Of a stretch of DNA of 24,000 nt, positions 2,320-24,000 are shown piece by piece (position 1 is the first letter of the stretch; each line of letters begins with the position of its first letter). The stretch is from Thalassospira lohafexi (GTDB taxonomy: Bacteria > Pseudomonadota > Alphaproteobacteria > Rhodospirillales > Thalassospiraceae). Under the pieces are notes generated by a model. It saw only the letters and a list, made by a program, of their open reading frames with translations. It was not told the DNA's origin and ran no database searches. The stretch lies in contig NZ_NXGX01000003.1 in NCBI RefSeq assembly GCF_002844275.1, positions 267,549 through 291,548 on the forward strand, read 5' to 3'. The translations under genes and the position numbers were made by a program.

Positions 2320-2748
2320 TCAGGATGACGCTTCACCAACGCGCTCGATCAACCGTTCAATCCGCTGGGCATGGGCATTTTCAACCCGCGCCAGACTTTC
2401 AAACCACGCGGCAACGTCATCAAGGCCTTCTTCCCGCGCGATACGCGCCATTTCCGGATAGGTCTGATCGGCTTCAGCCCGTTCTAAGGCCAATGCCGCT
2501 TCCAGATTGAGCTTTGTCGTGCCCAATGCCTTGCCGGTCGTCGCATCACCGGTTTTTTCCAAAAATTCCAGATGTCCGAACGCATGACCAGTTTCCGCCT
2601 CGGCAGCGGCTCGGAACAGCTCGGCGGCGTCGGTATCGCCTTCGATATCAGCCTGCTGGGCGAAATAAAGGTATCGACGGTTGGTTTGTGCTTCTGCGGC
2701 AAAGGCTGCGCGCAGATTTTCCTCGGTACGTGTTCCCTTAAGCGCCAT
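2320..2748 (-). CDS. Rubrerythrin-family / ferritin-like diiron protein (no rubredoxin domain)
   Basis: 142 aa from the ATG at 2748, with an AGGA Shine-Dalgarno 8 nt upstream. Starts MALKGTRTEENLRAAFAAEAQTNRRYLYFAQQA and carries diiron E..H motifs (AEAETGHAFGH; ERAEA). Confidence 0.8.
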   Translation of the reverse strand: MALKGTRTEENLRAAFAAEAQTNRRYLYFAQQADIEGDTDAAELFRAAAEAETGHAFGHLEFLEKTGDATTGKALGTTKLNLEAALALERAEADQTYPEMARIAREEGLDDVAAWFESLARVENAHAQRIERLIERVGEASS

Positions 2749-2809
2749 GTGCGCTGTCCTTATATTATTGTTCGCAAAGATCATTTGTGTGGATGCATGC
2801 GAAAGGTAT

Positions 2810-3000: not shown

Positions 3001-3447
3001 TCAGGCCGCATTCCGTGTCGCTGAATTGCGTTTCAAGCGGAAAACAAGATCAACCGACTGCAGTTCCGTGCCGCGCGGCATGTTGGGAATACCGGCAATC
3101 TGAATGGATTCAGCGGGAATGTCTGACAGCATGCCGTCTTCTTCGCAGTAAAAATGATAATGCGGGGCGGTGTTGGTATCAAAATATGAACGGCCCGAAT
3201 CAACCACGATCTCATTAAGCAAACCGGCATCGGTAAACTGGTGCAAAGTGTTATAGACCGTTGCCAATGACACCTTGATGGTGTTGGTCATCGCTTCGGA
3301 ATGAATTTGCTCTGCTGTGATATGGCGATGGCCATCTTCAAACATCAGACGGGCCAGGGCCAGTCGCTGCCGGGTGGGGCGCAGATTGGCCTCTTTAAGG
3401 CGATTAAGTGCATTGGTGTATGGACGCCCGGTGGTGGCGGTACGCAT
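3001..3447 (-). CDS. irr: Fur-family iron response regulator, Irr type
   Basis: 148 aa. LRPTRQRLALARLMF...HITAEQIHSEA...KVSLATVYNTLHQFTDAGLL...SYFDTNTAPHYHFY closely parallels Bradyrhizobium/Rhizobium Irr as I recall it. It has an H-x-H motif (HYH) where Irr has HHH. There are no CxxC zinc-site pairs and no N-terminal CP heme-regulatory motif. A GAAGGGG Shine-Dalgarno precedes the ATG. Confidence 0.8.
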   Translation of the reverse strand: MRTATTGRPYTNALNRLKEANLRPTRQRLALARLMFEDGHRHITAEQIHSEAMTNTIKVSLATVYNTLHQFTDAGLLNEIVVDSGRSYFDTNTAPHYHFYCEEDGMLSDIPAESIQIAGIPNMPRGTELQSVDLVFRLKRNSATRNAA

Positions 3448-3640: not shown

Positions 3641-5125
3641 TCAGTCACCGGTCATGATGCGATCAACAAGCTGTTTGACGCTCGGAATGTTGCCGTTGGC
3701 ATAGAACGGGTCTTCACCAAACTTGTAGGCATTATGGCCGGCAAACATCAGTTCGTTTTCAACCTTCGCACCGTGCGCAATGTTCTGAAGCGTTTTTTGA
3801 ATACAGAAAGAACGCGGATCAGCCCGTTTGCCGGTCGTGCCACTGTGCTGTTCCCAGTTGGAGAACTGGCACTGTGACAAACAGCCCATGCAATCGATCT
3901 GGTCTTTCTTAACCGTCAATGCGCTTTCAGGTGTCAAAAACACCATGGTTTCATCCGGGGTCGGCATGCCTTCGGTGTATCCGGCATCAAGCCAGCCACG
4001 CACCTTATCGGCATCATCTTCGCGGACGTAAATCGGACGCCCACGACGGCCCAGCGGAATACCGACATGCAGGTCTGCTTCGGCAGTACGCGAATAGCGC
4101 ACCTGACGATCAGACCGCTGATGCAGGTCTTCGAGGAAGGTGTTACGCACCGCCGAGCTATAGAAACCCGTCGGGCTGAATTTATGCAGCGATACATCGC
4201 CATCCTGAAGGCTGGTCAGGCGCTGTTTCCACTCGTCGGAAATCTCGCTTTCCTGAGTCAGAAGCGGACGGGTACCAAACTGGAAGGCCACCGGGGCAAC
4301 TTCCGGATTGTCGATCCAGTCTTCAAAATCACGCAGGAACCAGACACCGCCAGCCATAATGATTGGCACATGGTTCAGGCCAACCGAATTCATGAATGTA
4401 CGCAGGTCACGGACACGCGGGAACGGATCTTCGGGCACAAGCGGATCTTCGGAATTCGACAGACCGTTATGGCCACCGGCACGCCATGGATCTTCATAAA
4501 CCACACCGCCCAGCCATTCCGGGGTCTTTTTATACGACCGCAGCCACAATGCGCGGAAAGCACGGGCCGAAGACACAATCGGATAATAGTGAACGCCATA
4601 GTGGGCTGAAATCTGGGCAATCTTGTAGGGCATGCCTGCACCACAGGTCACCCCGTGAATAAGGCCTTTGGCACCTTCAAGCACACCCTCAAGGATCGGC
4701 TCAGCGCCGCCCATTTCCCACAAAACGTTCATATGCAAACGGCCTTCGCCGTTCCGCATTTCGTGGGCAATCTGAGCCTGTGCAATGCCGCCGCGAATAC
4801 CGTACGCAATCAGTTCCTGATGGCGGTCTCCGCGGGTTTTTCCTGCGTATTCGATCGGAACCATGTTGCCGTTCTCGTCATACGAGTCAGCATTCACAGC
4901 GGAAAAAGTCCCGATACCGCCGGCAGCGGCCCATGCGCCGGAACTTTTGCCCGTCGATACAGCGACGCCTTTGCCACCTTCGATAACTGGCAAGACTTCT
5001 TTACCCGACATGACGAGCGGATTAAGGGCTTTCAAGTTCGTCTCTCCCATTCGGCAATTTGCCAGCGACACCCCTGCATCGCTTTGACTGTCGGACGACG
5101 TTACATTTTTATCGTCGTCCGGCAT
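3641..5125 (-). CDS. Nitronate monooxygenase (NMO / 2-nitropropane dioxygenase) family FMN oxidoreductase, long form
   Basis: 494-aa ORF with FMN TIM-barrel-like glycine motifs (VIEGGKGV, GGIGTFS, VTCGAGMP, IIMAGGVW). The first ATG is 9 bp after the pnp stop and has no clear Shine-Dalgarno. An internal ATG at 5050 is an alternative start. Confidence 0.65.
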   Translation of the reverse strand: MPDDDKNVTSSDSQSDAGVSLANCRMGETNLKALNPLVMSGKEVLPVIEGGKGVAVSTGKSSGAWAAAGGIGTFSAVNADSYDENGNMVPIEYAGKTRGDRHQELIAYGIRGGIAQAQIAHEMRNGEGRLHMNVLWEMGGAEPILEGVLEGAKGLIHGVTCGAGMPYKIAQISAHYGVHYYPIVSSARAFRALWLRSYKKTPEWLGGVVYEDPWRAGGHNGLSNSEDPLVPEDPFPRVRDLRTFMNSVGLNHVPIIMAGGVWFLRDFEDWIDNPEVAPVAFQFGTRPLLTQESEISDEWKQRLTSLQDGDVSLHKFSPTGFYSSAVRNTFLEDLHQRSDRQVRYSRTAEADLHVGIPLGRRGRPIYVREDDADKVRGWLDAGYTEGMPTPDETMVFLTPESALTVKKDQIDCMGCLSQCQFSNWEQHSGTTGKRADPRSFCIQKTLQNIAHGAKVENELMFAGHNAYKFGEDPFYANGNIPSVKQLVDRIMTGD

Positions 5126-14620: not shown

Positions 14621-14660
14621 CCCAAAATGCACAAAAGAGCGGGCGCAAGGCCCACTCTTT
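14621..14660 (-). terminator. Terminator-like hairpin in the rimP-nusA leader (candidate attenuator, also ends hemO transcription)
   Basis: Minus-strand RNA reads AAAGAGUGGGC-CUUGC-GCCCGCUCUUU (11 bp including one U.G pair) followed by UGUGCAUUUUGG. Confidence 0.55.
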
Positions 14661-14687
14661 GTCCGGTTTTACAAAAAGCTTGGCGGC

Positions 14688-14716
14688 TTTATACAGCCGG
14701 TTTGCGCAGAAATCAA
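14688..14716 (-). promoter_or_regulatory. Sigma70-type promoter for rimP-nusA-infB
   Basis: The minus strand reads TTGATT, a 17-nt spacer, then TATAAA. It lies 27 nt after the hemO stop and upstream of the leader hairpin. Confidence 0.5.
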
Positions 14717-14742: not shown

Positions 14743-15369
14743 TCAACCTTGGGATTGCGTGTCAGCCGTGCGCGCGGCCTCGACCATCAGCAGATTACGG
14801 AAAAATTCAAAGGCCGCACAGGCACCATCGCGAACCATCTCATCTTCATTCTTTCCAAGTGCCAAGCTATTGACCTGATCGACAAATTCACGCCAATGAC
14901 GCCCCCGGCCATCTGCATGTGCTGCCAGATGACGCGCCCCGAAATCAGCAGTAAGACCGATCCCCGCAGCCGCCTTTAACAAAAAGGCAGCACCCAGCGA
15001 TGATCCTTCACAAACATAAAGCCAGCCAACACGCGCCATTCCGATCTGCGCTATATCTTGGCGACTCCTGAAATCAGGAACCTCACATCCCATGTCGGCA
15101 ATATCCTTTGACACAGCAGCATATCGGCTTCGATCTGCCAGCCCCGGCATCAGTTGGTTCAGGTCATCGGCCACATAAAGCGGCCGCATTGCACGATGAA
15201 ATATATATTGCAGCCGAAGAAACCGGGTATAGTTTTCCCGACTGTCAAAGGGTGCCATTGCCATCACCATATCATCAACACTCTGATGGTCGGTCCGCGT
15301 TGATTGTTTCAGCTCAGCCAATCGCGTCGGCTGGCCTCGCATCGTCTCTGGTTGTGATATCTCGTTCAC
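14743..15369 (-). CDS. hemO: Heme oxygenase, HemO/PigA type (biliverdin-producing)
   Basis: 208 aa. LKQSTRTDHQSVDDMVM...PFDSRENYTRFLRLQYIFH...GWLYVCEGSSLGAAFLLK...GARHLAAHADGRGRHWREF closely parallels Neisseria HemO as I recall it, including the proximal-His segment and the GS-LG distal helix. The start is GTG with a GAGGGG Shine-Dalgarno 7 nt upstream. Confidence 0.85.
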   Translation of the reverse strand: MNEISQPETMRGQPTRLAELKQSTRTDHQSVDDMVMAMAPFDSRENYTRFLRLQYIFHRAMRPLYVADDLNQLMPGLADRSRYAAVSKDIADMGCEVPDFRSRQDIAQIGMARVGWLYVCEGSSLGAAFLLKAAAGIGLTADFGARHLAAHADGRGRHWREFVDQVNSLALGKNEDEMVRDGACAAFEFFRNLLMVEAARTADTQSQG

Positions 15370-15433
15370 GTCAAAGCCCCTCGTGACTGTTCTATTTGCC
15401 TAAACTGGCTGCTGGTAAACAGCCCATAGAATC

Positions 15434-15462
15434 TGAAACGATCCGGACCACGCGATATCTGA
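15434..15462 (-). promoter_or_regulatory. ECF-type promoter candidate upstream of hemO (TCAGA-N17-CGTTTCA)
   Basis: The minus strand reads TTCAGAtatC, 12 nt, then TCGTTTCA. It has the same architecture and spacing as the sites at 22414-22442 and 23524-23552. It lies 65 nt upstream of the hemO start. Confidence 0.5.
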
Positions 15463-15494
15463 ACGCCGCAATGCTTTCCTGTGACATCGGGATG

Positions 15495-16859
15495 TTAATC
15501 CTCTCGAAAGGCACGCGCGAACTGATCCGACAAAGGTTTAAAAAGATAACTCAGCGCAGAACGTTCTCCGGTTGCCAAAAAGGTTTCAACAGGCATGCCT
15601 GGGACAAGCTCCTGCCCATCAAGTTTGGCAAGTTCACCAGCCCCAATACGCACGCGCACCACATAATAACTCTCCCCCGTCAGCTCATCGCGATCCAACT
15701 CGGCGGAAATCCGCGACACTTCCCCAGACAATTCCGGCGTTGTCCGCTGGTTAAACGCAGTAAAGCGTAGCATCGCGGTTTGACCAGGCATGACCTGTTC
15801 GATATCACGCGGATTAACATGCGCTTCGATCACCAGTTCATCGCGGTCAGGCACAATCCCCATGATCCGATCACCACCGGCAACAACACCGCCCACCGTA
15901 TGAACAGCCATCTGATAAACCGTCCCATCATAGGGGGCACGAATGTCAATCCGGCGCAGTTGATCATTAAGCGCAATCTGGCGTTGCTGTAATTCGGCAA
16001 GCTGCTGATCAATATCGGTCAGTTCGGACAGAACGTCTGTCTGACGGTCACGATCAAGTTGCAAAATCTGCATTTCAGTTTCGGAAATCTGCATATGGGT
16101 CGCCGCAATTTGCGCAGTCAGTTCACCATGAGTCCCGTCGAGACTAGCCCGCTCCCTGCGTAACGCCGCTACCCGCGTAATCGGAACAAGTTGCTTGGCA
16201 TACAGCATCTCTAACCCGCCTAGTTCATCAACAATGTGCCTGCGTTCCTCTTCATTTGCTGATTTCTGTGCCGTTAATCCGACGATTGTTTCGGAAAGCT
16301 GGGCCAGTTTTTGCGCAAGCTGTTGTTTTTCACCTTCAAGGCTGCTGCGCCGTGCCGCAAACAGGCGTTTTTCGGCACTTACCAATTCAGAAAGCTTGGC
16401 ATCCTGCTGTCGACTTTTAAAAGCATCCGGCAGGGACAGCTCATCATTTACATCGCGTTCTGCGACCAGACGCATCCGACGCGCTTGAAAGGCATCAAGC
16501 TGGGATTCGACAATGCCAAGACTGGCACGCGCCATTGTATCATCGAGCCGGATCAAAAGATCACCGGCCTTAACCTGATCACCGTCATGGACGTGAATTT
16601 CACCAACGATGCCACCATCGGCATGCTGGACATCCTTGACGTTGCTTTCGACCACCATTTTACCAGATGCCACCACGGCCCCGGAAAGCTGGGCAAGAAA
16701 CAGCCACACCATCAAACCTGCCATCAAGGCAAAGACAATCCCGCCGCCCCAAAACATATGCTTTCTTAATGCCAGTTGTGCCGCAGATAGACCCGTCTGT
16801 TGCCGGCCTGCTGCCGAGGGGGATACGGACATCGCACGCACAGATGAAACACCGATCAT
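15495..16859 (-). CDS. hasE: HlyD-family type I secretion membrane fusion protein (HasE/PrtE-like)
   Basis: 454 aa with an N-terminal TM segment, long coiled-coil Q/L/E-rich segments and an HlyD-type beta barrel. The ATG overlaps the upstream ABC gene's stop (ATGA). Confidence 0.88.
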   Translation of the reverse strand: MIGVSSVRAMSVSPSAAGRQQTGLSAAQLALRKHMFWGGGIVFALMAGLMVWLFLAQLSGAVVASGKMVVESNVKDVQHADGGIVGEIHVHDGDQVKAGDLLIRLDDTMARASLGIVESQLDAFQARRMRLVAERDVNDELSLPDAFKSRQQDAKLSELVSAEKRLFAARRSSLEGEKQQLAQKLAQLSETIVGLTAQKSANEEERRHIVDELGGLEMLYAKQLVPITRVAALRRERASLDGTHGELTAQIAATHMQISETEMQILQLDRDRQTDVLSELTDIDQQLAELQQRQIALNDQLRRIDIRAPYDGTVYQMAVHTVGGVVAGGDRIMGIVPDRDELVIEAHVNPRDIEQVMPGQTAMLRFTAFNQRTTPELSGEVSRISAELDRDELTGESYYVVRVRIGAGELAKLDGQELVPGMPVETFLATGERSALSYLFKPLSDQFARAFRED

Positions 16860-18580
16860 GCTGTTTCTCCTACCTGTCGGACGGTTTTGCGCAAGATGTC
16901 ATCGCGCGCACCAAAGGCGACCTGACGTCCGTCCTGAATAATGGTTGTCAGGTTAACCGTCGCCAGTGCACCGGGACGATGCGCTATCAAAACAACAATG
17001 GCACCACGTTCACGCGCATCGCGGACTGCCTGCAAAAGCGACTGTTCACCCGCGCTATCAAGATTGGAATTGGGCTCATCAAGCACGATCAGGAACGGAT
17101 CTCCAAATAGGGCGCGTGCCAAACCAATCCTTTGACGCTGCCCCCCTGACAGAACCACACCACCGGCCCCGACTTTGGTGTCATAACCATTGGGCAGGGA
17201 CTGGATCAGGTCATGCACACCCGCAGACCGGGCCGCCGAAACGATATCTTCGGATCTGGCATCAGGGATAAGCCGGGCAATGTTGCGGGCAACCGTGTCG
17301 TCAAACAGTTCAACATCTTGTGGCAAATACCCGACATGACGCCCCAGCCGTTCAGGATCCCAATGTGATAATTCAGCCCCGTCAATGCGGATGGAACCTC
17401 CCCGAATGGTGCCAATGCCGACCATTGCCCGCCCAAGAGTCGATTTTCCCGATCCGCTGGGACCAATGATCCCCAAACCATCTCCGGCCTTAAGCACCAG
17501 ATCATTAACCCGCAACAATACTTTTTGGGCATGTACAGACTCCCCACCCGACGTTGCCACTACAAGATTTGAGATTGTCAGACCTTGCGTTGGCGCAGGC
17601 AACTGCATGCGTTCGGAATGAGCGTCCTGTTTACTGAGAATGTGATCCAGGCGGGTGCGCGCTTGTCGGGCTGCGACAAACCCCCGCCAATTGGCAATGG
17701 CCTGCTCGACCGGTGAGAGTGCGCGTGCGGTCAGGATTGATGCAGCCACCATGGCACCGGGCGTGACTTCCTGCCGGATCGCAAGATAGGCCCCAAGGGC
17801 AAGCACAATGGATTGCAACGCAAGCCGAATGACCTTGATATAAGCCGAAAATGTTGAATTAACGTCGCCAACGACGGTGTTTTCCCTCAAGTAGCGATCA
17901 TTTTGCTGACCCCATTGGTGCCGAAAAGCCCCCAACATCCCCATCGCCCGAATGGCTTCGGCGTTACGGCACCCTGCTTCGACCAGATTGCTTCGCACGA
18001 CTGTTTGCGCATTCATGTGCGCGACCTTCTTACGGGTCACCAGTTCACTGACAAATGTCAGCGTTATTAAAACAATCCCGCCGACCAACGCCAATATGCC
18101 AAGCCAAGGGTGGAAAACAAAAACAATCCCCAGAAAAAGCGGCATCCACGGCAGATCACAAATCGCAATAGGACCGGCCCCACCAAGGAATTGGCGAATT
18201 TGATCAAGGTCATTGAGTGGCTGCGCCGTTTCCCGACCATTGCGCAAGCGAATGGTAAGCGTCTGTTCCAATGCCTTTGGCCCAATCTGCTCATCAACCC
18301 GCCAGCCAATCCGCACCAGCATGCGGGCGCGCAGGGCATCCACACCGCCCAGAAACAAATAAAGACCGATCACAAGACCAATCAACGCCAGAAGGGTCGG
18401 GACACTCTGACTGGCCAGCACACGATCATATACCTGAAGCATAAAAAGCGGGCCCGTCAGCATCAGCAGGTTTGAGACACCGCTCAATCCTGCGACAACC
18501 CAGAACACACGGCGCAAAGATGCAATCGCGGATCCAATTGGCGATTGGGACGCACCATGCGCAGTGTTTTGGGGGGACAT
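16856..18580 (-). CDS. hasD: Type I secretion ABC permease/ATPase, PrtD/AprD/HasD type (no N-terminal peptidase domain)
   Basis: N-terminal NLLMLTGPLFMLQVYDRVL motif, Walker A GPSGSGKST, signature LSGGQRQRIGLARAL and Walker B LIVLDEPNSNLD. The ATG at 18580 is preferred. The ORF-track GTG at 18649 lies inside a GC hairpin. Confidence 0.9.
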   Translation of the reverse strand: MSPQNTAHGASQSPIGSAIASLRRVFWVVAGLSGVSNLLMLTGPLFMLQVYDRVLASQSVPTLLALIGLVIGLYLFLGGVDALRARMLVRIGWRVDEQIGPKALEQTLTIRLRNGRETAQPLNDLDQIRQFLGGAGPIAICDLPWMPLFLGIVFVFHPWLGILALVGGIVLITLTFVSELVTRKKVAHMNAQTVVRSNLVEAGCRNAEAIRAMGMLGAFRHQWGQQNDRYLRENTVVGDVNSTFSAYIKVIRLALQSIVLALGAYLAIRQEVTPGAMVAASILTARALSPVEQAIANWRGFVAARQARTRLDHILSKQDAHSERMQLPAPTQGLTISNLVVATSGGESVHAQKVLLRVNDLVLKAGDGLGIIGPSGSGKSTLGRAMVGIGTIRGGSIRIDGAELSHWDPERLGRHVGYLPQDVELFDDTVARNIARLIPDARSEDIVSAARSAGVHDLIQSLPNGYDTKVGAGGVVLSGGQRQRIGLARALFGDPFLIVLDEPNSNLDSAGEQSLLQAVRDARERGAIVVLIAHRPGALATVNLTTIIQDGRQVAFGARDDILRKTVRQVGETA

Positions 18581-18627
18581 TTTGCCAAACACGTTTTTTA
18601 TATTCCAAAGATGTTTTATGTTGGGGT

Positions 18628-18651
18628 GGGTGCCGCTGTTACGCGGCACCC
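18628..18651 (-). promoter_or_regulatory. GC-rich hairpin in the hasA-hasD spacer
   Basis: GGGTGCCGC-N6-GCGGCACCC, a perfect 9-bp stem with no U-tract. A second hairpin lies at 18667-18694 (GCCCGU..ACGGGC plus CC/GG). Confidence 0.45.
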
Positions 18652-18701
18652 TGCATCAAGACTTTGCGCCCGTTCCGCTGCTTGTGGGACGGGCCGTTTT
18701 G

Positions 18702-19433
18702 TTAAACGAAGTCAGTTGCGTCGATATCGGTGTAATCAACACCGGTCAGCGTGACCGTGCCATTGGCATGGGAGATCAGCGCATTGCCGCTGCCATCATC
18801 GGCAACAGTGACCGAGGCATAATCGATATCAAGAAGATCGGTACCGTCGGTAAAATCGGTCACGGTGTCGTCACCGAAATCTGCTGACGTATCGAATTCG
18901 AAGGTATCCGCACCGCCATTGCCGGTCAGAACATCATCACCGGCCCAGCCGCCGATGACGTCATCACCAGTGCTGCCGTTGATTTCGACACCTTCAGATG
19001 CAAAGACCGACTGCAGTTCCGAACTATCACCACTGAAAAGCCCGGTCAGAACCGTACCGGTTTCACTCGAACTCAAAGCAAGCCCGGAAATATCGACGCT
19101 CGAATCGCTCAGATAGTAATCACCATTGGCATCCTGAGCCTTGGTTTCACCGAACGAAAGCTGATCAAGATTACCAACGATCTCATGCGTACTGATGTCA
19201 TAGCTGAAATCGGTGCCACTGTTGGATGAGGCCAGGAAACCGCCCGTATAGCTCGAACCGCTGTCTTCATCGCTCAAATAATATTGTTCGCCCTGAAACA
19301 AACCGTTGCCATTCAGGAACTCACCATAGTTGAACAGACCCTTGGAAAAGTTTGCATCAAAGTCTGAAAGCATACCTTTGAAGTCCACACCGTTTCCTGA
19401 TCCATCTGCATTCAGATCAATCGTGATCGTCAT
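18702..19433 (-). CDS. hasA: HasA-like hemophore fused to RTX repeats and a T1SS C-terminal secretion domain
   Basis: 243 aa from the ATG at 19433, with a GAGGAG Shine-Dalgarno 8 nt upstream. The N-domain aligns by eye with Serratia HasA. Matching segments (this protein vs HasA) are HEIVGNLDQLSFGE vs HTLYGQLDSLSFGD, SVDISGLALSS vs DVSFGGLNLSS, and VLTGLFSGDSSEL vs VVYGLMSGDTGAL. Residues 153-179 form three GGxGxDxUx-like nonamers. The tail is D/T-rich and ends DATDFV. Confidence 0.75.
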   Translation of the reverse strand: MTITIDLNADGSGNGVDFKGMLSDFDANFSKGLFNYGEFLNGNGLFQGEQYYLSDEDSGSSYTGGFLASSNSGTDFSYDISTHEIVGNLDQLSFGETKAQDANGDYYLSDSSVDISGLALSSSETGTVLTGLFSGDSSELQSVFASEGVEINGSTGDDVIGGWAGDDVLTGNGGADTFEFDTSADFGDDTVTDFTDGTDLLDIDYASVTVADDGSGNALISHANGTVTLTGVDYTDIDATDFV

Positions 19434-19479
19434 TTCGGAATCTCCTCGTTGTTTGTCACCCCAACCATTGAAGCAACAA

Positions 19480-19512
19480 ACATGAGAATGACTCTTAGTT
19501 TCATAATGAGTC
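19480..19512 (-). promoter_or_regulatory. Operator-like motif upstream of hasA (shared with the hasR upstream region)
   Basis: The minus strand GACTCATTATGAAACTAAGAGTCATTCTCATGT matches plus strand 22451-22483 at 26 of 33 positions. It has a weak Fur-box resemblance and lies next to a TTGACT hexamer. Confidence 0.45.
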
Positions 19513-19552
19513 AATATGTTTTTTTGTTTAAAAACAATTAGTTAATAGGAAG

Positions 19553-19587
19553 CACCAAAACACCGGCCAGGGAATTTCCTGACCGGT
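19553..19587 (-). terminator. Rho-independent terminator / attenuator between hasR and hasA
   Basis: Minus-strand RNA reads CCGGUCAGG-AAAUUC-CCUGGCCGG (9 bp with one U.G pair) followed by UGUUUUGGUG. It lies 27 nt after the hasR stop. Confidence 0.55.
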
Positions 19588-19613
19588 TAATGCCATTTAA
19601 ATTGCCTTGTGAC

Positions 19614-22352
19614 CTAGAAATTACCGCTTAAAGTCACAATCGCCGTCCGTCCCGGTGCAGCCGCATATGTTCCCCCTGATCCCTGAACGTAAGCTTCATC
19701 AAGCATGTTGTTCACCGCAAATCGCAGCGAGACATTCTCGTTGACTTCATAGGAGCTGTAGAAGTCGAACACACGATACTTGAAATACTCGCCGACCGAC
19801 GTTGACAGTGTTGCATGGCCAATATTGTCTTGCGGGTACACAAATGTCGCGCGCATCCCCATGACCAGATCTTGATCAAACAACCTGAAACCGCCATCAA
19901 GTGTGTATTTTCGTTTTGGCGGTGCATAAACACCATTAAGGCTGGATGCAGATCCATATTGATCTGCGACCGAAAGGGCTGCTGCGGAGTATGTGGTATC
20001 AAGGATGTAGGGGTCATAAGTCCCCTTAAGGTCCATGTCCGAGGTCGTCAGTGTTCCACCGAGAAAATACTCACCGCCATCATAGGCCATCTCAAGTTCG
20101 GTACCGTGGATATAGACTGGGTCGGACAGGTTCACCATACCAGCCGCCTGATAGGTCCCGGTCAAACTGGCCAGAAGAAGCGATGGAGTCGGCACATAGC
20201 CCATGGTGATGTAGTTATCCACCGTGGTACGATAATAAGCAACTTTGGCCCGGAAACCGTCGCCTTGTTGCAAAACATTGTCGAATTTGAAATTCGCACC
20301 AATTTCCTGTGTACGCGACTCTTCAGCCTTAAGATTAGCATTTGAGAAAAAGGAAAGCGGTACACCGCCAAGATGCGAACCTTTCAACATCGTCTCCATC
20401 ACAGTCGGAGCACGAAAGTTTTCACGATAATTGGCGAACAACTGGATACCATTGACAGGTGTAATGCCGAAACCGAATGACGGGGAAACCTTGTCTTGGA
20501 CCAAGTCAATATCAAGAGACGCATCATTGTCAGTCGCACATTGATTTGCCGAGCCAAAGAAATTTGGAACCGCTTCACACCAGTAAGAATCTCCATCCAG
20601 AGCAAACCGGTCATAGCGAACACCTGCGCTCAGCTCAAACAGATCATTCCAGCCATATGTTCCCGTTAGATAGCCGCCGTAGACATCCCGCTGACCGGCA
20701 GGCGTATTGCCTTCAACTTGATAAGGAAGGTCGCCTGAACCACCTAAATCTTCGACTTCCGAACGTGTTGTGGCTTTGTCGTGGAAAAACTCGGTCCCAT
20801 AGCCTAAACCAAATTCACTAAGCCCATCTCCAAACCGGGTCAGATCAAATTCGCTACGGTTCGCGATATCGCCGCCCGCTGTGTCCACTGTAAAAAGATT
20901 GGTGTAAGGATCATGCTCGATCGCGCCTGCCGCGCTGTAGCGGGCGGGCCGATACTGACTGTTTTCGGTGCGCGTCCAGAACAGATTGGTATCAAGATTC
21001 ACCAAATCCGTTTCCGGGTTCCAGTTATGCTTAGCTGTTAAAGTGTCGGTCTTGGTCTCATTGAAGTCTGTTTTTTCGTTCGCGATGTCATTGGTTTTGG
21101 CATAGTTGCTTTTTGATCCGACATATCCAAGATTGAGCTCCTGATCTTCGGTCAAATAGATATTTGCCTTAACCAATCCAGACGTCTGACGCAGAAAAGT
21201 GTAGTCGGAACGGGAACTGTCTCGATCGTGGTATGTTCCGTTGCCGGTAACAAACAAACCGGGATTATGTGTACCAGCCCGATAATTCCCTATCACCTTA
21301 CGGCTGATGGTTGCCGAAACATCAAGTTTCGGTGAAATCCGTGCACCGGCGGATGCGTCACCAGCAAAATCGTAGCTGTTGGTACCGTGACTAATATTGA
21401 CCTTGCCGCCCCAATCCTCATCATCATCAAGGATATCATTGGTATTCAGTGTCCGCATGGTCACAATACCGGCTGAACTCCCCGCACCACCATTTTGATT
21501 AAGGTTAGATTTTTCAATCTCAACTTCTGCCAAAAGTGCTGGATCAAGATAGACGCGCGATGAAGCACCGTGAGAGGCTTGGTTATAGTTCTGTCGTGCC
21601 CCGTCGATATTAACGTTTACCCGGCCCATTTCCTGCTGACCGCGGACATTGACGGTCAATCCCGGATCACGGGCATCGTTTGAAATGTCGACACCGGCAA
21701 CTTGATTGAAAATGTCGCGTGCTTCCCGCACAGGGGATTTGCGCATGCTTTCCTGCGTAATCACGGCAATCGACCCAGGTGTTTCATAAACCTCATCAGG
21801 AACGCCGTTTGGGCCCAGATTACGAATTGCTGCCGTTACCGTGATTGGCTCTGTGATATTTGCCGAACTCTGCGCATTGTCCTGCTGTGGATTTGCAATC
21901 GAGATGGTGCTTTGGTTGATCACACTCCATGCCAAACCGCTTTGGCGAAGCAAAATATCGAGCGCGCTCGCAGTGGTCATATCACCATTCACACCGGCGC
22001 TTGTGGCGCCATCAGGCAGCACACCGTCAAACACAACATCCACGCCGGAAATACGCGAAAAAACAACCAACGCACTGCTTAATGACTGTGCTTCGATATC
22101 AAAGCGATGTTGCCCAGCCTGCAATCGAGCCGGTCCAGTATCAGCCTGTGCCAGTTCCGGTCCCTCTCGCGTTTGCAGTAAACTTTCATTTTTGGACTGC
22201 GCCTGGGCAACGGCAAAACCCGGCGCAGACATCACGATACCAGCACTCAATATTGCGGCCACGACCAGATGCGAACGCCCCAATGATGTTGTTGCCCCAA
22301 GCAAATTTTTATTCATCGTGCTGCACACACGACCCACCCCGTCGGAAGGCAT
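19614..22352 (-). CDS. hasR: TonB-dependent heme/hemophore receptor with N-terminal STN signalling domain (HasR-like)
   Basis: Signal peptide ending FAVAQA and an STN-like segment (FDIEAQSLSSALVVFSRISGVDVVF...ALDILLRQSGL). TonB box EPITVTA, plug domain and terminal F. Heme-receptor boxes NFRAP...GSH...SNANLKAE map to nt 20331-20417. The ATG at 22352 has an AGGAG Shine-Dalgarno 9 nt upstream; the ATG at 22316 is an alternative. Confidence 0.9.
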   Translation of the reverse strand: MPSDGVGRVCSTMNKNLLGATTSLGRSHLVVAAILSAGIVMSAPGFAVAQAQSKNESLLQTREGPELAQADTGPARLQAGQHRFDIEAQSLSSALVVFSRISGVDVVFDGVLPDGATSAGVNGDMTTASALDILLRQSGLAWSVINQSTISIANPQQDNAQSSANITEPITVTAAIRNLGPNGVPDEVYETPGSIAVITQESMRKSPVREARDIFNQVAGVDISNDARDPGLTVNVRGQQEMGRVNVNIDGARQNYNQASHGASSRVYLDPALLAEVEIEKSNLNQNGGAGSSAGIVTMRTLNTNDILDDDEDWGGKVNISHGTNSYDFAGDASAGARISPKLDVSATISRKVIGNYRAGTHNPGLFVTGNGTYHDRDSSRSDYTFLRQTSGLVKANIYLTEDQELNLGYVGSKSNYAKTNDIANEKTDFNETKTDTLTAKHNWNPETDLVNLDTNLFWTRTENSQYRPARYSAAGAIEHDPYTNLFTVDTAGGDIANRSEFDLTRFGDGLSEFGLGYGTEFFHDKATTRSEVEDLGGSGDLPYQVEGNTPAGQRDVYGGYLTGTYGWNDLFELSAGVRYDRFALDGDSYWCEAVPNFFGSANQCATDNDASLDIDLVQDKVSPSFGFGITPVNGIQLFANYRENFRAPTVMETMLKGSHLGGVPLSFFSNANLKAEESRTQEIGANFKFDNVLQQGDGFRAKVAYYRTTVDNYITMGYVPTPSLLLASLTGTYQAAGMVNLSDPVYIHGTELEMAYDGGEYFLGGTLTTSDMDLKGTYDPYILDTTYSAAALSVADQYGSASSLNGVYAPPKRKYTLDGGFRLFDQDLVMGMRATFVYPQDNIGHATLSTSVGEYFKYRVFDFYSSYEVNENVSLRFAVNNMLDEAYVQGSGGTYAAAPGRTAIVTLSGNF

Positions 22353-22413
22353 ATTCAATTTCTCCTGATTTCTCAGAAATGCAAATGCGTCGCATTCATT
22401 TCCTGTTACTTTC

Positions 22414-22442
22414 TGAGACGAAGAAGAAAATCAGTTATCTGA
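22414..22442 (-). promoter_or_regulatory. ECF-type promoter candidate upstream of hasR (TCAGA-N17-CGTCTCA)
   Basis: The minus strand reads TTCAGAtaaC, 12 nt, then TCGTCTCA. It lies 62 nt upstream of the ATG at 22352. The -35 pentamer overlaps the left arm of the 55-bp palindromic unit. Confidence 0.5.
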
Positions 22443-22492
22443 AATTAAATGATTTATTATGAAAATAATTTTCATTCTCATTTAATTTCAGA
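22438..22492. promoter_or_regulatory. 55-bp palindromic unit with an embedded Fur-box-like 8-1-8 palindrome
   Basis: Perfect 15-bp arms TCTGAAATTAAATGA (22438-22452) and TCATTTAATTTCAGA (22478-22492). The inner palindrome is ATGAAAAT-A-ATTTTCAT (22459-22475). Its core TGAAAATAATTTTCA matches the 7-1-7 Fur consensus TGATAATNATTATCA at 12 of 14 specified positions. Confidence 0.55.
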
Positions 22493-22528
22493 GGCTATCC
22501 ATTGCATGCGGGAAGGTTTTCCAGGGAA

Positions 22529-23449
22529 TTATGCGGCGCGAACAACCGTAAGATAGTCGGTGAATTGATCGACCTTTATCGACAAAACTGTCGAAAGCGC
22601 ATCCAGAACATGCCGTGACCGGTCGAGATCAACGACAATTGTTACCTTGCGCGATTTCAAGGCGTCTCCAAGGATGACGATCTTGCCATCTTGCCAGCGT
22701 TCAAGAATATTGACGACGTCGTCAAGACGCTCGCCAATAAACACAAGTTGTCCATTCCGCCAGGCAAGCGCATTGCCGACATTGACCTTTCTTGGATCGC
22801 TGACCCAACCATCGCCATATCGAACTTCCTGCCCGGCCTGAACCGGCTTCATGGTTCCGCCAGCCCGTAAGACAAGACCATTTTGCTCGGCGATCACGGT
22901 TGTCGTGCCAGCGTAGTTTGCCACATCAAACCTGCCGCCTTCCGACCAAGTGGCTCCGCCAGTCGCGGCAACAAAAAAGTTTGTCCCTGCAACTCGATGG
23001 TCAAACCAGGCCTCACCATGATGAATGGCGACGCCTGAAACACCCTGTTTCGCAACAAGTGACAAGGACGTATCGCTGGCAAGCATCGCTTTAACACCGC
23101 CCGGTAGAACCATTTCGCGGCGCTCACCACTGGCTGTTCTGATGTCTGCCAAGGGATGGAACCGATGCGCAGTCCATCCAGCGCCGACAACCATAGCGGC
23201 AATTGTGCCCCCCAGAAATGCCCGACGGCCAAGATTTCTGTTGGCGTCAATTTGCAAACTGGAACTACCATTCCACAAACGTTCAATTTCATCGAAAGCA
23301 TGAAGGTGACTCGGATCTTCGGCGACCCAGCGCGCAAAAGCTTTTCGGTCATTTTCCGTTTCACTGCCATCAAGAAGCAACGCAAACCAATAAGCGGCCT
23401 GATCGCTCACGGTTCTTGGCATGGTGTCAAAATGTGTTTCCGGGATCAT
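22529..23449 (-). CDS. hasS: FecR-family anti-sigma factor / transmembrane sensor (HasS-like)
   Basis: N-terminal anti-sigma segment (AAYWFALLLDG...FARWVAEDPSHLHAFDEIERLW), one TM segment (AFLGGTIAAMVVGAGW) and a FecR periplasmic domain. The start is uncertain: ATG at 23449, ATG at 23422 or the ORF-track TTG at 23485. Confidence 0.85.
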   Translation of the reverse strand: MIPETHFDTMPRTVSDQAAYWFALLLDGSETENDRKAFARWVAEDPSHLHAFDEIERLWNGSSSLQIDANRNLGRRAFLGGTIAAMVVGAGWTAHRFHPLADIRTASGERREMVLPGGVKAMLASDTSLSLVAKQGVSGVAIHHGEAWFDHRVAGTNFFVAATGGATWSEGGRFDVANYAGTTTVIAEQNGLVLRAGGTMKPVQAGQEVRYGDGWVSDPRKVNVGNALAWRNGQLVFIGERLDDVVNILERWQDGKIVILGDALKSRKVTIVVDLDRSRHVLDALSTVLSIKVDQFTDYLTVVRAA

Positions 23450-23523
23450 ATCGGCATCGCCGTTCTTTATAAAACTCCCCCGCAAAGACGCAAATATACG
23501 CTTTGATGTGCGGGACCTGATAA

Positions 23524-23552
23524 TGAGACGAGCGGGATTTGAGGATTTCTGA
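23524..23552 (-). promoter_or_regulatory. ECF-type promoter candidate upstream of hasS (TCAGA-N17-CGTCTCA)
   Basis: The minus strand reads ATCAGAaatC, 12 nt, then TCGTCTCA. It lies in the 85-120 nt gap between the sigma and anti-sigma genes. Confidence 0.45.
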
Positions 23553-23569: not shown

Positions 23570-24000
23570 TTATGGTTTTTCCATCGCCTCTTTGACAACG
23601 CCTAAGGCCTTGACCATCCGACTGAACGCCGTTTGGGTCGGAATCCCCAACTGCTCGCCAATCTGGACATATGTTTTGCCTTCGACACGGGCCAAAATAA
23701 AGACATCACGCAATGGTCGGGGCAGGGACTCAAGCACCTTTTGAAGGTGACGCAGCTCCTGACGAGACCAGGCAATCTGTTCCGGAGACGGGGCGTCGTC
23801 GGCGATGACTTCAAACGCCAGTTCAGAATCCTGCACAAAGGTCAGAATGCGTTCGCGTCTGAAATGGTCAATGACAAGATTGTTGGCAGTTCGATAAAGA
23901 TATGATTGCGCAAAACATTGCTCAGGCAGGCTCGGTGTTGCAACAACCCGAACAAAAGTATCCTGCACAATATCATCGGCAAGATGCCACGATATCCTGC
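23570..24000 (-). CDS. hasI: ECF (FecI-type) RNA polymerase sigma factor, 5' end outside the window (HasI-like)
   Basis: The frame is open to the window edge and reads ...RISWHLADDIVQDTFVRV (region 2). Region 4 reads LPRPLRDVFILARVEGKTYVQIGEQLGIPTQTAFSRMVKAL. The ORF-track GTG at 23968 is internal. Confidence 0.85.
   Translation of the reverse strand, partial: RISWHLADDIVQDTFVRVVATPSLPEQCFAQSYLYRTANNLVIDHFRRERILTFVQDSELAFEVIADDAPSPEQIAWSRQELRHLQKVLESLPRPLRDVFILARVEGKTYVQIGEQLGIPTQTAFSRMVKALGVVKEAMEKP

Follow-up and report, generated by a model that had tools for sequence, protein, structure and literature searches.

Which genes of a hemophore (has) locus answer to the sigma factor encoded beside them, and does a heme oxygenase gene at the far end of the locus belong among them? 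The question is raised by a stretch of 24,000 nucleotides from Thalassospira lohafexi (contig NZ_NXGX01000003.1, positions 267,549 to 291,548), referred to here as the window and numbered from its first letter. Its minus strand carries, in order, the gene of a FecI-type extracytoplasmic function (ECF) sigma factor (hasI), hasS, hasR, hasA, hasD, hasE and hemO, followed by rimP-nusA-ylxR-infB-rbfA-truB-rpsO-pnp. An original prediction, made from the sequence of the window, had described a two-part motif upstream of hasS, hasR and hemO and had proposed it as the promoter of the encoded sigma factor. Comparison with related loci makes a Thalassospira version of the HasI promoter, placed before hasS and hasR as in Serratia and additionally before hemO, a sound prediction.

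A two-part motif before hasS, hasR and hemO

The pattern TCAGA-N17-CGTYTCA matches the 24-kb window exactly three times, always on the minus strand (23552-23524, 22442-22414 and 15462-15434), and matched none of 100 dinucleotide shuffles. In the order hasS, hasR and hemO, the sites read TCAGAAATC-N12-TCGTCTCA, TCAGATAAC-N12-TCGTCTCA and TCAGATATC-N12-TCGTTTCA; the pattern search thus reproduced the three copies first described, in position, strand and sequence. The elements assigned to them are as follows.

23524 to 23552, minus strand: predicted HasI-type promoter of hasS, with -35 TCAGAAAT (23552-23545) and -10 TCGTC (23531-23527)
22414 to 22442, minus strand: predicted HasI-type promoter of hasR, with -35 TCAGATAA and -10 TCGTC
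15434 to 15462, minus strand: predicted HasI-type promoter of hemO, with -35 TCAGATAT and -10 TCGTT

All three sites are intergenic. The first is located 18 nt past the hasI stop codon; the second and third each fall between a stop and the next start codon, those of hasS and hasR and those of hasE and hemO, respectively. Each is found on the coding strand; counted from the end of the motif, the conserved start codon follows after 75 nt in hasS, 62 nt in hasR and 65 nt in hemO, in keeping with the 60-75 nt given initially. A scan for sigma-70 promoters and terminators placed no sigma-70 promoter at any of the three sites.

As the pattern had been defined after its three sites had been seen, the likeness might be fortuitous, or the sites might be remnants of a repeated or mobile sequence. 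In an unbiased test, all dyads of a 5-mer, a gap of 10-20 and a 4-mer that are common to the three intergenic regions (120, 176 and 125 nt) were enumerated. A single dyad was returned, TCAGA-N16-TCGT, and none of 2000 dinucleotide-preserving shuffles gave any such common 5+4 dyad; the motif is therefore real and not a product of chance. The flanks of the sites are dissimilar, with the boxes alone alike, and the boxes are conserved across lineages, as described below. Accordingly, the earlier statement that a match of this kind is unlikely by chance stood up to both sets of shuffles, and a fortuitous or mobile origin is effectively refuted, the probability left to it being negligible.

When two mismatches were allowed, ten matches were found in the window against about four expected, and the extra matches either lacked the invariant CGT or fell inside genes. 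One candidate with a single mismatch, at 2307-2335 on the plus strand, was rejected: CGC replaces the invariant CGT, the match abuts the 3' end of the rubrerythrin gene, which is encoded on the opposite strand, and there is no gene downstream.

Each of the predicted HasI-dependent 5' untranslated regions also contains hairpin-forming sequence, all on the minus strand. These are CCCGCA...TGCGGG for hasS (23478-23514), AATGC-N9-GCATT for hasR (22376-22397) and GGCTG-N8-CAGCC for hemO (15407-15425). Those of hasR and hemO recur, with altered sequence, in the alignment of orthologs.

Conservation in syntenic loci

Loci with the same gene order (sigma-hasS-hasR-hasA-hasD-hasE-hemO-rimP) were gathered by a metagenome scan with a HasR alignment and by contig look-ups. 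This syntenic set comprises 8-9 distinct lineages, whose HasR proteins are 38-99% identical to that of the window. When the three spacers were aligned separately with MAFFT, the islands TC(A/G)GA(A/T)A(A/T) and (T/C)CGT(C/T) were found to be conserved at a constant distance from each other, while the intervening sequence has diverged freely. A relaxed core, TC[AG]GA[AT]A-N14-[CT]CGT[ACT], is present at the three expected positions in every locus covering them, amounting to 37 sites, 25 of which are unique. No further match to this core was found on either strand in 268,643 bp of syntenic loci, and its absence there extends to the hasR-hasA, hasA-hasD and hemO-rimP spacers and to the region upstream of hasI. 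Two other loci, L076 and L077, contribute six more sites, and over the syntenic loci taken together, about 314 kb, the core is confined to the three places. From unrelated Has loci (883,405 bp) it is altogether missing, the chance expectation for its information content being about 1 per 0.7 Mb of double-stranded sequence.

Among the 25 unique sites the CGT is invariant and the spacing identical. Information beyond the core is concentrated in a few columns: TCAGA is preceded by A or T, position +17 is C, A stands four bases past CGTY, and a purine about 10 nt past CGT could be the transcription start site. The position matrix of the sites can be summarised as wTCrGAwAw-N13-yCGTy. The form in which the motif was first written is thus upheld in its TCAGA/CGTY core and spacing, both kept in orthologs, but not in its trailing TCA, which is lineage-specific and not conserved. 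The sites combine a CGTY -10 element and a fixed spacer with boxes that are kept while the spacer diverges, and are found in sense orientation at promoter distance, as is characteristic of ECF promoters.

The same comparison bears on whether the motif is a promoter or, instead, the operator of a conventional transcription factor responsive to iron or heme. Fur-box-like sites do occur in the locus, an Irr gene is present in the window, and a second TCAGA directly after CGTY at hasR and hemO hints at a direct repeat. This second TCAGA is, however, not kept in orthologs, and the idea of a direct repeat was discarded. What is conserved is asymmetric and two-part, with the invariant 17-nt spacing and CGT typical of ECF -35 and -10 elements, and it has one orientation at all sites, 62-75 nt before the start codons. 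Moreover, the analogous element of Serratia is needed for HasI-dependent transcription. An operator is highly unlikely on this evidence, and a promoter remains the preferred reading.

Probable assignment to the adjacent sigma factor

The closest described counterpart of these promoters is found in Serratia, where HasI drives hasS and hasR through a common -35 element without regulating its own gene (PMC9249621). This element, TTTACGGGTTT, was shown by site-directed mutagenesis to be needed for HasI-dependent transcription of hasS (PMC9249621). Signalling through HasI, HasS and HasR and the HasI-dependent promoters of hasS and hasR are known from earlier studies (Rossi 2003; Biville 2004; as reviewed in PMC9249621), and the facts on Serratia cited in the original prediction are correct according to this review.

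The Has locus of Serratia marcescens resembles that of the window in its sequence of FecI-type sigma, FecR-type anti-sigma, signalling heme receptor, hemophore and type I secretion genes. In both, one sigma-specific element precedes hasS as well as hasR, and hasI is without the element and is situated behind an iron-box-like operator. The two differ in the -35 element itself (TTCAGATA here, TTTACGGGTTT there), with a spacer 1 nt longer in the window, and in the third copy of the motif, which in the window stands before the heme oxygenase gene that closes the locus. They differ further in that hasA of the window apparently has its own Fur-box-type promoter behind a hairpin and is not simply co-transcribed with hasR, that the hemophore carries an RTX module, and that the locus is carried by an alphaproteobacterium (Rhodospirillales).

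Classical gamma- and betaproteobacterial Has loci, collected from metagenomes (L017-L075), mostly have no hemO nearby. Nearly all of them carry, upstream of hasS and hasR alike, an analogous pair, (A/T)TAC(N)G-N14-17-CGT(C/T) or, more narrowly, TTAC(T/G)G-N15/16-CGTC, with a -35 core of TTaCtGA where the window type has TTtCaGA. The exact Serratia box is present in one classical subgroup (L026 and L028-L034) and absent from the window. The type of motif therefore tracks the type of sigma factor and keeps its positions, and thus behaves as a cognate promoter should. By this analogy, the motif of the window would work like that of Serratia, although its sequence is not the same. A more distant likeness is offered by the FecI-dependent fecA promoter of Escherichia coli and by the Pseudomonas PvdS iron-starvation box (TAAAT-N16-CGT), likewise iron-starvation ECF promoters with a CGT-type -10 element, a spacing of 16-17 nt and Fur operators overlapping or adjoining them. 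Their -35 sequences differ from that of the window, and FecI does not drive its own anti-sigma gene.

CGT-type -10 elements are common to many ECF groups, and the -35 element of the window differs from the published HasI box; the motif might on these grounds be the promoter of a different ECF sigma encoded elsewhere, such as another iron-starvation sigma. Against this stands a strict co-occurrence, as the motif is found at three sites in every locus that has a Thalassospira-type sigma and is absent from the 883 kb of classical-HasI loci, which carry their own variant at the same positions. Its placement before the anti-sigma and receptor genes also mirrors the arrangement of HasI promoters in Serratia. 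A different sigma factor is improbable, if slightly less so than an operator, and it is very probable that the three sites are promoters recognised by the HasI-like, FecI-type sigma encoded at the head of the locus. The claim that this sigma and the motif are cognate is accordingly strongly supported by the retention of positions and spacing, by exclusivity, and by the classical analog.

Several observations weigh against this assignment. The -35 element of the window is (A/T)TCAGA(A/T)A and not the published TTTACGGGTTT of Serratia, and TCAGATA and the classical TTACTGA agree in only 5 of 7 letters, the spacer of the window being longer by 1 nt. The sigma gene itself is incomplete in the window. 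Two hemO sites are weaker, with CGTA in L014 and CCGTC in L007, and no terminator was found after hasI or hasE, so that transcripts of hasS and hemO could also arise by read-through.

Heme oxygenase as a probable member of the regulon

All 8-9 lineages retain the hemO site at the same spacing, whereas the 125-nt spacer surrounding it has diverged. It may still be asked whether this copy is minor or vestigial, with hemO expressed mainly by read-through from the hasA-hasD-hasE transcript. The terminator scan found no terminator-like hairpin between hasE and the hemO site, the -10 elements are weaker at some hemO sites, and in L056 hemO follows the secretion genes without a recognisable promoter of its own, no motif being common to the upstream regions of its hasR and hemO. 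Against this stands the retention of the site at one spacing in every lineage despite a diverged spacer, and two unrelated Has loci have independently placed the motif of their own sigma type before hemO. In L072, a classical sigma-type site is found at 16804-16840, with the hasF stop at 16810 and the hemO ATG at 16863; in L046, such a site is found at 3693-3729, with the hemO ATG at 3800. The motif in these loci, both of high G+C and unrelated to the window type, is TTACTGA/TTACGGA-N16-CGTC/CGTT. Since L072 and L046 also have one, a private ECF promoter of hemO appears to have arisen or been kept in several lineages. That the hemO copy is of little consequence is therefore unlikely, albeit less so than the alternatives weighed above. 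Given the conserved site and the lack of a hairpin after hasE, hemO could be transcribed from its own promoter as well as by read-through.

In Pseudomonas syringae, experiments have established that a FecI-like sigma, Ecf7 (Psyr_1107), controls hemO, with a >160-fold drop in the mutant, and such control was also reported for PSPTO_1286; both sigma factors act on a TonB receptor gene as well (PMC3597554). As in the window, hemO is located there beside a set of genes for a FecI-type sigma, an anti-sigma and a TonB receptor. It is under the control of that sigma in P. syringae; the Ecf7 cluster differs in having no hemophore and no type I secretion genes. With the conserved site, the analogs in L072 and L046 and this precedent, the predicted placement of hemO in the HasI regulon is well supported and not new in principle. 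The proposal that heme oxygenase joins a hemophore-signalled regulon is thus strengthened by the retention of its site in all lineages and by the two analogous loci.

Expression of hasA and hasDE

The original prediction held that hasA and hasD have no copy of the motif and rely on read-through from hasR. The search of the spacers confirmed the first part. The second fits poorly with the features found around hasA, listed here together with an iron-box-like palindrome before hasR.

22461 to 22479, minus strand: Fur-box-like palindrome GAGAATGAAAATTATTTTC just upstream of the hasR -35, with 15/19 positions of the Fur consensus and a conserved block of columns
19562 to 19587, minus strand: hairpin directly after hasR (terminator or 3' stabiliser), from a terminator-like match and RNAalifold
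19482 to 19537, minus strand: conserved hasA promoter-like block, consisting of the palindrome TTGTTTTTAAACAA, then TTGACTC (-35-like), overlapping a Fur-box-like TGACTC...GAGTCA
18628 to 18695, minus strand: two conserved attenuator-like hairpins between hasA and hasD, from the terminator scan (18668-18694) and an alignment with paired changes

The hairpin after hasR shows compensatory changes in 9 of its 11 pairs (RNAalifold). The columns of the hasA block are invariant in 14 loci, and TTGACTC is present in every lineage. Its Fur-box-like repeat matches 15-17 of the 19 consensus positions in orthologs and 13 of 19 in the window, the latter by hand count and below the threshold of 14. The sigma-70 scan missed the block, whose -10 is weak in the window. 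In L076, which has a diverged hasA allele, the upstream sequence differs and is again Fur-box-like. With a covarying hairpin after hasR and a conserved promoter-like block before hasA, hasA is unlikely to owe most of its transcription to read-through from hasR.

For hasDE, read-through past the two conserved hairpins after hasA is more likely than read-through from hasR. On account of these hairpins, transcription of hasDE from the hasA promoter is probably reduced. The second hairpin overlaps the listed GTG start of hasD, and this start is therefore doubtful; the gene probably begins at an ATG some 70 nt further on (MSPQNT...).

Candidate iron-box-like operators

Fur boxes were sought with a 19-bp consensus at a threshold of at least 14/19, and the matches cluster at three places in the loci, namely upstream of hasI, immediately before the hasR -35, and upstream of hasA. 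The palindrome at hasR reaches 14-16/19 in L003, L006, L014 and L016 and falls below 14 in L001, L007 and L012. Over the putative hasI promoter, a Fur-box-like palindrome is found in L001-L016 (for example at about 8170-8190 in L003), with a conserved TTGAGAATGATTTTCATATGCGATA.

No Fur gene was seen in the window, where the sole gene of the Fur family is that of Irr, a heme-sensing iron regulator. Irr could be the binder of the AT-rich boxes. An Irr box (iron control element, ICE) was considered for the AT-rich palindromes, to which the Fur consensus is the better fit. The Irr gene (IrrA equivalog, 200 bits; 3001-3447, minus strand) adjoins the rubrerythrin gene (2320-2784, minus strand).

Proposed regulatory circuit

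From these elements a circuit can be proposed. Iron limitation would derepress hasI, and probably hasR and hasA as well, by way of the Fur-box-like operators. The secreted HasA-RTX hemophore would carry heme to HasR, whose signalling domain would inactivate the FecR-type anti-sigma HasS, and the freed HasI would guide RNA polymerase to TC(A/G)GA(A/T)A-N14-(T/C)CGT(C/T). Transcription would rise for hasR, giving more receptor; for hasS, providing a pre-loaded off switch as in Serratia; and for hemO, coupling the breakdown of heme to its sensing. As hasI is without the motif, it would not be autoregulated. From the sequence we infer the recognition of the motif by HasI, the signalling steps, and transcription starts some 6-10 nt past CGTY, near 23520, 22410 and 15430.

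The likely layout consists of five units, namely hasI, hasS, hasR, hasA-hasDE and hemO. The hasI unit would be read from an iron-box promoter, hasS from a HasI promoter, hasR from a HasI promoter combined with an iron box, hasA, with an attenuated hasDE, from an iron-box promoter, and hemO from a HasI promoter and by read-through.

This layout provides a testable cis-regulatory map of hemophore-based heme sensing in a marine alphaproteobacterium, from a group in which systems of this kind are not known to have received study. It predicts that heme degradation is switched on by the sensing of extracellular heme and not by iron limitation alone. It also offers a natural variant of the HasI promoter (TTtCaGA-N17-CGTC versus TTaCtGA-N16-CGTC) that could serve work on ECF specificity or the design of orthogonal switches. 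The general picture of cell-surface signalling is unchanged, the basic design being already known from Serratia and Pseudomonas; the points of interest are the lineage-specific -35 variant, the coupling of heme degradation to heme sensing, and the apparent uncoupling of hemophore production from the signal.

Gene assignments and the hemophore

The genes of the locus were assigned as follows.

23570 to 24000, minus strand: 3' part of the ECF sigma gene (HasI-like, FecI-type); Pfam Sigma70_r2, r4 and r4_2, NCBIfam sigma70-ECF and, weakly, FecI
22529 to 23449, minus strand: hasS, FecR-type anti-sigma factor; Pfam DUF4880, FecR and FecR_C, and alignment of the upstream region
19614 to 22352, minus strand: hasR, TonB-dependent heme receptor; TIGR01785 TonB-hemin, 443 bits (cutoff 317), and Pfam STN, Plug and barrel
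18702 to 19433, minus strand: hasA, HasA-family hemophore domain (residues 1-146) and C-terminal RTX beta-roll module; profile comparison with the PDB
15495 to 18649, minus strand: hasD (PrtD-type type I secretion ABC protein) and hasE (HlyD-type adaptor); TIGR01842, 676 bits, and TIGR01843, 390 bits
14743 to 15369, minus strand: hemO, heme oxygenase; Pfam Heme_oxygenase, 1.3e-22, and alignment

The 5' end of the sigma gene and its promoter are situated beyond the edge of the window, and the sigma is of full length in L001-L004. The sigma of the window is about 33% identical to that of classical Has loci, and its HasR about 29%. The conserved start of hasS is the ATG at 23449. That of hasR is the ATG at 22352, as the ortholog alignment shows, and not the listed TTG at 22358; the GTG start of hemO at 15369 is aligned with the ATG of orthologs. 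The N-terminus of HasR is an STN signalling domain (Pfam), and the TIGR01842 and TIGR01843 scores of HasD and HasE both exceed the model cutoffs. Together, the locus contains what defines a Has system: a HasA-family hemophore, a signalling TonB heme receptor, a type I secretion pair, and an adjacent FecI-type sigma with its FecR-type anti-sigma. By its homologs, the locus belongs to Thalassospira and relatives (Rhodospirillales). An Rfam scan of the whole window returned no match.

The HasA product is a secreted protein of 243 residues, the last 100 or so of which form a calcium-binding RTX beta-roll resembling the modules of epimerases, lipases and serralysins. To our knowledge, classical HasA proteins are without such a module. 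The Pfam HasA model gave no direct match to the product of the window. Homologs that are 53-83% identical to it do match PF06438, and NCBI gives several the name HasA. In a profile search of the PDB, the orthologs matched the solved HasAp/HasA structures over residues 1-146 (E=3e-11), and the heme-ligand pair, Tyr78 and His83, is invariant among the orthologs. The profile match, the invariant Tyr/His pair and the PF06438-matching homologs thus justify the has gene names. Most database copies of the HasA-RTX protein are annotated merely as 'calcium-binding protein', and a literature search on hemophores of Thalassospira found nothing.

Mosaic structure and flanking regions

Compared with L003 and L004, the window shows a nucleotide identity of at least 97% over hasI, hasS, the beginning of hasR, the RTX portion of hasA, hasDE and hemO. 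Between about 21900 and 19000 on the minus strand, its identity to L003, L004 and L002 is 50-70%; this segment takes in HasR beyond roughly residue 150, the spacer between hasR and hasA, and the hemophore domain of HasA. The edges are sharp, with flanks that are 97-100% identical and a return to 95-99% identity exactly at the start of the RTX part of hasA. The same kind of difference, confined to the HasR barrel, separates L006 from L077. The barrel of HasR and the HasA domain are thus hypervariable between flanks that are nearly identical, and look like an exchangeable or diversifying receptor/hemophore cassette.

It is tentatively suggested that the Has circuit of the Thalassospiraceae has been rewired relative to those of Serratia and Pseudomonas, a picture that is plausible and somewhat short of probable. 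The hemophore would be uncoupled from the heme signal by its own iron-box promoter behind a hairpin, and the heme oxygenase wired in through a private HasI promoter. The receptor barrel and the heme-binding domain of the hemophore would form a strain-variable, exchangeable cassette between conserved regulatory and secretion modules.

At the other edge of the window, genes for a FecCD-type permease and an ABC ATPase are encoded on the plus strand (17-1860), the second-best NCBIfam match of the ATPase being a heme ABC ATPase, below the cutoff. The hemO-rimP spacer is nearly invariant across lineages at 14634-14716 (minus strand), where a leader hairpin resembling a terminator lies between a TTGATT-N17-TATAAA promoter and rimP-nusA-ylxR-infB. 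This leader hairpin may be an attenuator of the nusA operon.

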